64,000 nucleotides of DNA, from the NCBI RefSeq assembly GCF_003334335.1, contig NZ_QOWQ01000028.1; one strand, written 5' to 3'. A program made the translations under genes and the position numbers. Below the pieces are notes generated by a model. The model was not told the DNA's origin and made no database searches. It saw only the letters and a list, made by a program, of their open reading frames with translations. This DNA is from Escherichia coli (GTDB taxonomy: Bacteria; Pseudomonadota; Gammaproteobacteria; Enterobacterales; Enterobacteriaceae). This document shows positions 45,772 through 49,805 of the stretch, piece by piece (positions within the stretch are counted from its first letter, which is position 1; each line of letters begins with the position of its first letter).

Positions 45772-46088
45772 GATATGGGGTTTGGTCATTGTTAATGAGC
45801 ATGACAATCATGACCGCCAACGACTGGATTCTTCCTTGGTTTATATTGGTGCGCATAATGTATATTATGTTAAATCATGTCTGAGTGATGCGAAGTGCTT
45901 TTCTGGTAGTCGTTATTCGTTCAGGGTTCAAGAACTTAAGCCTCTCCTCTTTCATAATTGGCCTGTGCATGGAGAAATAGCCTGGTTATTCCCTGCCCCA
46001 TGCTAAGAGCGCAGTGTCTGTCGCATAGACACTGCATACGAAAACACCAGAGGGTGCTGTTACTTATTTAAGGACGGATCAAGCGGGA

Positions 46089-46291
46089 ATGAGTCCACTC
46101 CGGTATCAGAAATGGCTACGTCTCAATGAAGTCAGGCGACAGATGCTGAATGAACATTACGATGTCACCACAGCAGCCTATGCTGTCGGTTACGAAAGCT
46201 ATCCCATTTCAGTCGGGAATATTCGCGGATGTTTGGAGAGTCACCCAAGAGAGATATTACCAGGTTAAGAAAGTCTGTCGGACAGCTTTAA
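46089..46291 (+). pseudogene. yneL: AraC-family regulator C-terminal HTH fragment with an internal frameshift near 46200
   Basis: Hand translation: MSPLRYQKWLRLNEVRRQMLNEHYDVTTAAYAVGYES, then after a frame change HFSREYSRMFGESPKRDITRLRK; no intact N-terminal domain. Confidence 0.6.
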
Positions 46292-46623
46292 TAAACCCTG
46301 CACTTATCTGTTTAGAGCAATTCGGTGTTAGTTTCAGCAAGCAAACATTAACCATAGCTAATGATTTATAGCCATATTAACCATTGGTAGCTCTTGACCT
46401 TTCCTGACACTTCCCTTGTTCGCAATAATATTCTGTTTAGTCACGGTTTATAAATAACATGCATAATGAAATCGTCATGTTATTTAGCGACATAAAATGT
46501 TTTTGCAAATACTCTCTTCAACAAGTGCAGCAATAAACTTGTTGTGGAACCAATATCCAGGTCGCAGGATATCGCTATTCTACGCAAGGTTTTTATAACT
46601 TATCCGACAGTGCCTACAGTCGA

Positions 46624-47772
46624 ATGAGTGGTTACACCGTCAAGCCTCCTACCGGAGACACCAATGAGCAGACACAATTTATTGATTATTTTAATCTGTT
46701 CTACAGTAAGCGTGGTCAGGAACAAATAAGCATCTCTCAGCAGCTTGGAAATTACGGTACGACATTTTTCAGTGCCAGTCGCCAAAGTTACTGGAACACG
46801 TCACGCAGCGACCAGCAAATATCATTTGGATTAAATGTGCCGTTTGGTGATATTACGACTTCGCTGAATTACAGCTATTCCAATAATATATGGCAAAACG
46901 ATCGGGATCATTTACTCGCTTTTACGCTTAATGTTCCCTTCAGTCATTGGATGCGTACAGACAGTCAGTCGGCATTTCGTAATTCAAACGCCAGTTACAG
47001 TATGTCAAACGATTTGAAAGGCGGCATGACCAATCTATCGGGGGTTTATGGCACTCTGCTGCCGGATAATAACCTGAATTATAGCGTTCAGGTCGGTAAC
47101 ACCCACGGAGGTAATACATCGTCTGGCACCAGTGGTTACAGTTCTCTTAATTATCGTGGAGCTTATGGTAATACTAATGTCGGTTACAGTCGGAGTGGTG
47201 ACAGCAGCCAGATTTATTACGGAATGAGTGGTGGGATTATTGCTCATGCTGATGGCATCACCTTTGGACAGCCGCTGGGCGACACAATGGTTCTGGTTAA
47301 GGCTCCTGGTGCTGATAATGTCAAAATAGAGAACCAGACCGGAATTCATACCGACTGGCGTGGCTATGCCATATTACCATTTGCGACAGAATATAGAGAA
47401 AACCGTGTTGCTCTTAACGCGAATTCCCTTGCAGATAATGTTGAACTGGATGAAACCGTGGTCACTGTCATCCCAACTCACGGTGCTATTGCCAGAGCAA
47501 CATTTAATGCACAAATCGGCGGGAAAGTATTAATGACGTTGAAGTACGGTAATAAGAGCGTTCCATTCGGTGCAATTGTCACACACGGAGAGAATAAAAA
47601 TGGCAGCATTGTCGCGGAAAATGGTCAGGTTTATCTGACTGGACTTCCACAGTCAGGGCAATTACAGGTTTCATGGGGCAAAGATAAAAACTCAAACTGT
47701 ATTGTCGAGTACAAGCTTCCTGAAGTTTCTCCTGGTACCTTACTGAACCAGCAGACAGCAATCTGTCGCTAA
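46624..47772 (+). pseudogene. ydeT: Fimbrial usher (FimD family) C-terminal fragment lacking the N-terminal half
   Basis: 382 aa ORF, Ser/Gly/Tyr-rich beta-strand composition, sits at the head of fimbrial subunit genes; a usher is normally ~850 aa. Confidence 0.7.
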
Positions 47773-47785
47773 GGAACAATAGATT

Positions 47786-48316
47786 ATGAAATACAATAAC
47801 ATTATTTTCCTCGGTTTATGTCTGGGGTTAACCACCTATTCTGCTTTATCCGCAGATAGCGTTATTAAAATTAGCGGGCGCGTCCTCGATTATGGCTGCA
47901 CAGTCTCATCGGATTCGCTTAATTTTACCGTAGATCTCCAAAAAAACAGTGCCAGACAATTTCCAACGACCGGTAGCACAAGTCCAGCCGTCCCTTTTCA
48001 GATTACGTTAAGTGAATGCAGCAAAGGGACAACGGGGGTTCGGGTTGCATTTAACGGTATTGAGGATGCAGAAAATAATACTTTGTTGAAACTGGATGAA
48101 GGAAGCAATACGGCCTCCGGTTTGGGTATAGAAATATTGGACGCAAATATGCGTCCGGTGAAACTGAATGATCTTCATGCCGGGATGCAGTGGATCCCAC
48201 TGGTACCAGAACAGAACAATATTTTGCCTTACTCCGCTCGTCTGAAGTCAACTCAGAAGTCCGTCAATCCGGGACTGGTGAGGGCTTCGGCAACCTTTAC
48301 CCTTGAATTTCAATAA
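47786..48316 (+). CDS. ydeS: Fimbrial minor subunit-like protein
   Basis: 176 aa ORF with signal peptide and conserved Cys pair. Confidence 0.8.
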   Translation: MKYNNIIFLGLCLGLTTYSALSADSVIKISGRVLDYGCTVSSDSLNFTVDLQKNSARQFPTTGSTSPAVPFQITLSECSKGTTGVRVAFNGIEDAENNTLLKLDEGSNTASGLGIEILDANMRPVKLNDLHAGMQWIPLVPEQNNILPYSARLKSTQKSVNPGLVRASATFTLEFQ

Positions 48317-48328
48317 TCAGAGTCAGAT

Positions 48329-48832
48329 ATGAAAAGACTTCACAAGAGGTTCCTGTTAGCTACGTTTTGCGCGTTATTCACAGCAACTCTCCAGGCCGCC
48401 GATGTCACTATCACTGTTAATGGTCGGGTAGTCGCTAAACCCTGCACTATTCAAACCAAAGAAGCTAACGTTAATCTCGGGGATCTTTATACGCGCAATC
48501 TGCAACAACCTGGTTCTGCATCTGGCTGGCACAATATTACTTTGTCATTAACCGATTGTCCGGTTGAAACAAGTGCAGTGACGGCAATCGTGACAGGTTC
48601 AACTGACAATACGGGTTATTACAAAAATGAAGGTACTGCCGAAAATATTCAGATAGAGCTGAGGGATGACCAGGATGCTGCGTTAAAAAATGGCGATAGC
48701 AAAACGGTTATTGTTGATGAGATCACTCGTAATGCACAGTTTCCACTTAAGGCAAGAGCTATCACGGTGAATGGAAACGCAAGCCAGGGAACGATCGAGG
48801 CGCTAATCAATGTGATCTACACCTGGCAATAA
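48329..48832 (+). CDS. ydeR: Fimbrial minor subunit-like protein
   Basis: 167 aa ORF with signal peptide and conserved Cys pair. Confidence 0.8.
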
Positions 48833-48890
48833 CGTCGATTCGATTTTCTTAGCCTTCTTTTTAAATCAATTTTTAACCTTAGGATATATC

Positions 48891-49805
48891 ATGGGTAAAA
48901 CAATCAGTATAAAGGTCCTGTTCGGTATTTATCTTCTATTAATGGCAGGCAAAGTTTTTGCCTTCAGTTGTAATGTCGATGGCGGGTCAAGTATTGGAGC
49001 AGGTACAACCTCTGTTTATGTTAATCTCGACCCTGTAATACAGCCGGGCCAGAATCTGGTTGTAGACTTGTCTCAGCATATAAGTTGCTGGAATGATTAC
49101 GGCGGCTGGTACGACACTGATCATATAAACCTGGTACAAGGCTCAGCTTTCGCAGGCTCCCTACAGTCATATAAAGGATCGCTGTACTGGAATAATGTGA
49201 CCTACCCCTTCCCGTTGACGACAAATACCAACGTATTGGATATTGGTGATAAGACACCGATGCCATTACCGTTAAAACTCTATATTACCCCAGTTGGGGC
49301 GGCCGGTGGAGTTGTCATAAAAGCGGGGGAAGTCATTGCCCGTATTCATATGTATAAAATTGCAACATTAGGAAGCGGAAATCCGCGTAATTTTACGTGG
49401 AATATTATTTCAAATAACAATGTTGTTATGCCAACAGGCGGCTGCACCGTTGATAGTCGTAATGTCACCGTGGATCTCCCGGACTTTCCTGGAAGCGCAG
49501 AAATACCCCTTGGCGTATATTGCTCAAGCGAACAAAAGCTCTCATTTTATCTTTCGGGTGCCACCACTGACAGTAGCCGACAAGTGTTTGCTAACACAGC
49601 ACCTGATGCAACAAAAGCATCGGGAGTGGGTGTCACTCTAATGCGTAATGGAAAAATACTGGCTACGGGAGAAAATGTCTCCCTGGGGACAGTAAATAAA
49701 AGCAAAGTACCTCTGGGTTTAAGCGCAACCTATGGACAAACAGGAAACAAGGTTTCAGCCGGAACCGTCCAGTCAGTCATTGGTGTCACTTTTATCTATG
49801 AATAA
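48891..49805 (+). CDS. ydeQ: FimH-like two-domain fimbrial tip adhesin
   Basis: 304 aa ORF with signal peptide followed by FSCN... start typical of FimH-type adhesins. Confidence 0.8.

Follow-up and report, generated by a model that had tools for sequence, protein, structure and literature searches.

A truncated fimbrial locus of Escherichia coli that is almost certainly a K-12-type allele of the F9 operon, cut by a single deletion

How do three fimbrial subunit genes come to stand behind the tail of an usher gene, with no chaperone or major subunit gene beside them? The question is raised by a locus in a 64,000-nucleotide stretch of Escherichia coli DNA (RefSeq assembly GCF_003334335.1, contig NZ_QOWQ01000028.1), called the window here, in which hipB, hipA, an AraC-type helix-turn-helix (HTH) fragment (yneL), ydeT, ydeS, ydeR, ydeQ and ydeP follow one another between 44.1 and 52.4 kb in the list of open reading frames (ORFs), all on the plus strand. 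The original prediction, made from the letters of the window alone, had described a decayed chaperone-usher cluster with an AraC-family fragment, and every element that it named was found in its place, both in the ORF list and in the RefSeq annotation of an identical K-12-type record. In window coordinates this annotation gives an HTH pseudogene at 46083-46291, frameshifted and lacking the N-terminus, an usher pseudogene (ydeT) at 46546-47772, also lacking the N-terminus, and ydeS, ydeR and ydeQ as intact genes. With near certainty, what is seen here is the F9 (Fml/Yde, gamma-1) fimbrial operon in its K-12-type form, interrupted by one non-homologous deletion of 3,280 bp. A 4.2-kb query over the locus is 100% identical to many K-12-type chromosomes, and some part of it is matched in 5,421 of 5,426 complete E. 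coli genomes.

The locus was compared with intact operons. Two genomes served as intact references, the O157:H7 strain NE 1169-1 and the B2 strain JJ2434 (locus L003), and in both of them the same site is occupied by a major subunit gene, a chaperone gene, a gene for an usher of 883 amino acids, ydeS, ydeR and ydeQ. The earlier reading of the locus as a fimbrial operon deprived of its 5' half is borne out by this comparison, and so is its statement that chaperone and major subunit are missing, as neither gene was found between hipA and ydeP on either strand. The operon is known as c1931-c1936 in CFT073, as ECs2113-ECs2107 in O157:H7 Sakai and as fml in UTI89; the F9 pilus is the same as the Fml/Yde pilus, and FmlH the same as YdeQ (review, PMC12442223). 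The window shares with it the position between hipBA and ydeP, the promoter motif and the genes of the FimF-like, FimG-like and FmlH proteins, which are orthologous to those of the intact operons. The retained F9 sequence is collinear over about 3.66 kb with 96.9% identity to JJ2434 and 98.4% to O157:H7, and the retained 3.2 kb shows 97-98% DNA identity to intact F9 operons. Searched with Rfam on either strand, the stretch 43900-50200 gave no match.

Type 1 fimbriae (fimAICDFGH) offer a second point of comparison. They have the same gamma-1 architecture, with the YdeT remnant corresponding to FimD residues 426-833, YdeS to FimF, YdeR to FimG and YdeQ to FimH in full length; type 1 is nevertheless a paralogous system and is not truncated like the one in the window. 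F9 has been called the pilus nearest to type 1 (PMC12442223). Its lectin recognises Gal-beta-1,3-GalNAc/GlcNAc and that of type 1 recognises mannose (PMC3966885, PMC12442223).

The point at which the operon was cut can be placed exactly. In BLAST alignments with JJ2434 the window up to 46546 corresponds to L003 up to 5720, and the window from 46546 onwards corresponds to L003 from 9001 onwards; the alignment with O157:H7 is likewise collinear to the left and right of one gap of 3,280 bp. The junction, to which no strand is assigned, therefore lies at 46546-46547 and reads ...TTGTG|GAACC... when taken base by base, with a single common G (1 bp) as microhomology. No repeat and no insertion-sequence scar is present at 46546|46547. 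The missing 3,280 bp hold the f9 leader from +74, the major subunit gene, the chaperone gene and usher codons 1-475; at its right end the gap stops precisely between two codons. Direct observation covers the deletion with both end points, the promoter sequence that was kept and the integrity of the distal genes. The ancestral operon would have consisted of the promoter, major subunit, chaperone, usher, FimF-like, FimG-like and FmlH adhesin genes between hipBA and ydeP, and one non-homologous event would have brought usher codon 476 up against nucleotide +73 of the leader. Nothing that was found contradicts this model.

What remains of the usher is ydeT, at 46546-47772 on the plus strand, which comprises codons 476-883 of the 883-codon F9 usher gene according to RefSeq, Pfam, NCBIfam and PDB comparisons. 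The first in-frame ATG is located at 46624, and the ORF that starts there (46624-47772) encodes 382 amino acids; usher homology begins 78 nt before this ATG, at 46546, and gives 408 codons. The original prediction was right that only a C-terminal piece is left, but its length of 382 amino acids counts from the first ATG. Since the ORF is uninterrupted and is annotated as a gene in K-12-type records, it might be argued that YdeT is a complete stand-alone protein of a short usher-like family. There is practically no chance that this is so. Against Pfam Usher (PF00577) the 382-residue product covers only model positions 286-549 of 549, followed by PapC_C, and the 408-codon remnant can be aligned over its whole length with mature FimD of solved structures (PDB; residues 426-833 of 833) and with the last 408 positions of the NCBIfam usher models, all of whose scores are far under the cut-offs. 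Moreover, the homology does not stop at the ATG but reaches the deletion junction, there is no signal peptide, and RefSeq treats the gene as a pseudogene without its N-terminus. The alignment that had been proposed as a check on ydeT thus sets the truncation point at codon 476. An outer-membrane usher comprises PF00577 together with PapC_N and PapC_C at full length, with a signal peptide, a 24-strand barrel and a plug; ydeT keeps the distal half of the barrel and the two C-terminal domains, and is not a complete member of the family. Judged from the published FimD structure, what has gone includes signal peptide, N-terminal domain and plug, along with roughly one half of the barrel.

The three distal genes are in a different state. 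The adaptor gene ydeS (47786-48316, plus strand) encodes an intact FimF-type subunit of 176 amino acids, whose score against the NCBIfam FimF model is 239.7 bits (curated cut-off 200) and whose length agrees with that of its orthologues. It is followed by ydeR (48329-48832, plus strand), an intact FimG-type adaptor gene (167 amino acids) with 256 bits against NCBIfam FimG (curated cut-off 220); the PDB, too, yields FimF and FimG chains as matches for the two products. The last gene, ydeQ (= fmlH; 48891-49805, plus strand), encodes an intact two-domain tip adhesin of 304 amino acids. It is of the FimH type, with an alignment that spans the whole of FimH, and its lectin domain (residues 25-184) is identical in 159 of 160 positions to the crystallised F9 adhesin FmlH (PDB 6AOW), as is expected of the tip adhesin of an F9 operon. 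None of the three genes has an internal stop, their lengths equal those of the orthologues in intact operons, and their DNA is 97-98% identical to them. The early description of three fimbrial subunit-like genes, one of them for a FimH-type tip adhesin, therefore holds, while the word "decayed" suits the operon as a unit but not ydeS, ydeR and ydeQ, which are all of full length.

The locus is thus a truncated allele of the F9 operon, reduced to the C-terminal 408 codons of the usher gene and three distal genes, and not a working member of the family. With the deletion went the major subunit, the chaperone and that portion of the usher in which signal peptide, N-terminal domain and plug reside. 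Lacking a chaperone, a major subunit and an usher portion that can be exported, cells with this allele should be unable to assemble F9 pili, which are predicted to be absent from their surface. Any subunits that are made would lack their cognate chaperone and would probably be degraded in the periplasm, and the YdeT fragment, having no signal peptide, is not expected to be exported.

Was the promoter lost together with the 5' half of the operon? In CFT073 the f9 transcription start was mapped by 5'RACE to a G that precedes the ATG of the major subunit by 251 nt, behind a -10 hexamer CATAAT and a -35 hexamer TAGTCG with an 18-bp spacer (Wurpel et al. 2014, PMC3966885). Transfer of coordinates from JJ2434, together with a pattern match, places the f9 promoter of the window at 46438-46467 on the plus strand (-35 TAGTCA, 18-bp spacer, -10 CATAAT); the start G is at 46474, and the junction comes 73 nt later. 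The F9 arrangement of -35 TAGTCG/A, 18 bp, -10 CATAAT and +1 G is thus present in the sequence that precedes the remnant. Of the f9 5' leader, the initial 73 nt (46474-46546, plus strand), delimited by coordinate transfer and by reading of the junction, now abut usher codon 476. The promoter at 46438-46467 was also listed by a generic consensus scan, although the promoter and terminator consensus scans as a whole performed at chance level. Loss of the f9 promoter by the deletion was considered and rejected, as the transferred published start site shows that promoter and 73 nt of leader were kept. Since the promoter is retained, the remnant appears to be a fusion close to its native promoter and not a promoterless relic. 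The f9 promoter region is bound by H-NS and the F9 pilus is expressed at 20 degrees C (PMC3966885), and the ydeT remnant, ydeS, ydeR and ydeQ would still stand behind this H-NS-repressed promoter, active at low temperature. In the literature examined, no statement was found that the mapped f9 promoter survives beside the remnant.

The cause of the deletion had been sought in the neighbouring genes, with the suggestion that the arrival of hipBA at this site may have cost the operon its 5' half. It is true that hipBA lies directly upstream of the locus and that the region from hipA to f9 varies among strains (PMC3966885; seen also in the alignments with JJ2434 and O157:H7). Nevertheless, the intact operon of JJ2434 is directly preceded by hipB and hipA, both of them intact, and in E. 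coli B (ATCC 11303), whose hipBA and flanks match those of the window at 99.9% identity, the usher and chaperone genes persist as full-length, point-mutated pseudogenes. A distance of 775 bp separates the hipA stop from the left end of the deletion, which falls within the f9 5' leader; this intervening sequence is collinear with that of O157:H7, where the operon is intact, and no mobile-element scar marks the junction. Acquisition of hipBA as the cause is in consequence extremely improbable, and this part of the original prediction does not stand. A separate observation concerns O157:H7 (L002/L004 3817-4926), in which hipA is a pseudogene without its N-terminus, no hipB is annotated and the f9 operon is intact, the reverse of the situation in K-12.

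With a 200-bp probe centred on the junction and a requirement that at least 80% of it be covered in one piece, the same junction was counted in 1,375 of the 5,426 complete E. coli genomes (about 25%). At least 80% of the missing 3,280-bp segment is found in 3,515 genomes (about 65%), and some of it in 3,820. Other strains have lost the operon in other ways. In E. coli B ATCC 11303 (L007 5061-9306) a deletion has one end within yneL and the other at about codon 66 of the major subunit gene, and the resulting fusion is annotated as a "fimbrial protein" of 160 amino acids; this fusion explains the "YneL with a FimA-like domain" of BL21 that is discussed in PMC9308461. The chaperone gene of this strain carries E124stop, and its usher gene a 1-nt deletion near codon 117 and Q480stop. 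In the mouse strain M6 (L006 2483-5793) one deletion begins 9 nt past the f9 transcription start and reaches into the chaperone gene, and a second one leads from the chaperone gene to usher codon 39, with a 120-bp fragment of the chaperone gene left between them. Both alleles concern the same operon between the same flanks as in the window, and in both of them function was lost through lesions at the 5' end; these disruptions are independent of the deletion in the window. The possibility that the point lesions of E. coli B are older than the K-12 deletion was also considered. The B-specific Q480stop is absent from the window, and no conclusion on the state of the K-12 operon before its deletion was drawn.

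The age of the deletion bears on how the intact distal genes should be read. Over 2,095 bp downstream of the junction a single base distinguishes the window from E. coli B, their flanks are 99.9% identical, and the deleted segment has been kept in B. The deletion is recent, because so little divergence separates the two sequences, and the ydeT remnant, ydeS, ydeR and ydeQ are a young remnant in which decay has not yet set in. Codon changes unique to the lineage of the window, in comparison with O157 and B2, are 19 synonymous and 8 non-synonymous, and a like pattern (9 synonymous and 3 non-synonymous) is seen in the usher remnant, which is certainly dead. Because the dead usher behaves in the same manner, this signature of purifying selection reflects history before the deletion and is uninformative about present function. 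The low ratio of non-synonymous to synonymous change (dN/dS) in ydeS, ydeR and ydeQ was accordingly rejected as a sign of continued function, given the like ratio in the dead usher and a difference of one base in 2.1 kb between K-12 and B.

Several observations bear on whether the remnant is inert. Transcripts of ydeS are reported to rise on overproduction of BolA in K-12 (PMC4337573), and growth of MG1655 is reported to be better after deletion of ydeQRST (PMC8174762). Transcription of the remnant is therefore probable, and the remnant may be costly to the cell or retain some activity. A further point is that the -35 hexamer of the window is one base off that of CFT073 (TAGTCA versus TAGTCG).

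A functional remnant can be imagined as follows: the f9 promoter yields YdeS, YdeR and YdeQ, FimC and FimD of type 1 fimbriae assemble them, and an FmlH tip appears on type 1 pili at low temperature. Such a scheme is favoured by the promoter and start site kept 73 nt upstream of the junction, by three intact genes with YdeS and YdeR above the FimF and FimG equivalog cut-offs, by a YdeQ pilin domain that aligns along the full length of FimH, by the inducible ydeS mRNA in K-12 (PMC4337573) and by the closeness of F9 to type 1 (PMC12442223). Intactness of the genes is, however, explained by a recent deletion, and the low ratio of non-synonymous to synonymous change is shared by the dead usher. 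The operon has also been destroyed by other routes in related strains, a hint that selection on the system as a whole is relaxed or negative. Pairing of chaperone and subunit in chaperone-usher systems is, besides, usually specific. On balance a functional remnant is very unlikely. In its broadest form, the proposal would be that in a quarter of sequenced E. coli the retained promoter drives an intact FmlH and two adaptors at low temperature or when H-NS is relieved, and that the chaperone and usher of type 1 fimbriae display them; this must be regarded as a long shot. If it were true, K-12-type strains would possess a cryptic tip that binds Gal-beta-1,3-GalNAc without an F9 pilus of their own.

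Upstream of the deletion lies yneL, and it may be asked whether its truncation belongs to the same event. At 46083-46291 on the plus strand it is the frameshifted C-terminal remnant of an AraC/XylS-family regulator and covers the second HTH (RefSeq, three-frame translation, NCBIfam, PF12833). Members of this family have two HTH motifs in a C-terminal domain of about 100 amino acids and in addition an N-terminal domain for sensing or dimerisation; in the window only the region of the second HTH is left. Its translation runs ...GMSPLRYQKWLRLNEVRRQMLNEHYDVTTAAYAVGYES in one frame and continues ...SHFSREYSRMFGESPKRDITRLRKSVGQL* in another. The AraC-type fragment with a frameshift near 46200 had been predicted correctly: in alignment with O157:H7 a 1-nt deletion is located at 46199-46200 on the plus strand (GAAAGC-TATCC here, GAAAGCTTATCC there). 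The stretch 45782-46082, with which the span of the original prediction opens, has no AraC homology in the window. The window is collinear with O157:H7 up to 45972, and a 112-bp block specific to the K-12-type allele follows (45973-46084, plus strand, by pairwise alignment with O157:H7), where the O157:H7 allele encodes the first HTH of the AraC-type fragment. No second copy of this block is present in the window.

The O157:H7 allele of yneL (89 amino acids) matches only the C-terminal ends of AraC-family NCBIfam models (RclR, RhaS, FtrA). Database homologues carry PF12833, and no intact, full-length orthologue came up in a non-exhaustive search, in which the best 120 of 257 homologues were all of 154 amino acids or fewer. 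In the sampled genomes that have the fragment its N-terminus is lacking, and in E. coli B the fragment is fused to the major-subunit gene; in JJ2434 it is absent and an unrelated segment of 407 bp is found instead (L003 5095-5501). O157:H7 and EC556 have an intact operon and an annotated fragment that is already without its N-terminus, and for this reason the truncation of yneL is a lesion separate from the fimbrial deletion. The gene is an unrelated, older AraC-family remnant that acquired an extra frameshift in the present lineage. A tandem duplication of the yneL region in EC556 was considered and dismissed, as the two BLAST matches in question belong to different strains. Upstream of its AraC-type fragment EC556 (L005 1754-3198) has a quinol monooxygenase gene, a frameshifted gene of the carboxymuconolactone decarboxylase family and an IS66 element, with no hipBA there; the AraC-type regulator, before it was lost, may originally have had these as its neighbours.

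On the other side of hipBA, the window contains a large autotransporter gene at 38541-43960, which a frameshift near 42410-42449 splits into two overlapping ORFs (1302 and 516 amino acids); RefSeq names its equivalent "ECSE_1600 family autotransporter, frameshifted". JJ2434 does not have this gene, and hipBA follows directly after tam/yneE in that strain.

The truncation of ydeQRST in K-12 and its identity with the F9/Fml operon have already been published. The K-12 deletion of F9 was described by Archer et al. 2011, and Wurpel et al. 2014 listed K-12 MG1655 as "disrupted" and described the hipBA and ydeP flanks (PMC3966885). Beyond correct annotation, the significance of the present analysis is small. 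What it adds is the exact junction, free of any repeat or mobile-element scar, the counts over 5,426 complete genomes, and the survival of the f9 promoter upstream of the remnant. This last point bears on how transcript signals of ydeS, ydeR and ydeQ in K-12 are read, and on the use of K-12 as an "F9-negative" host in studies of F9 or FmlH expression.

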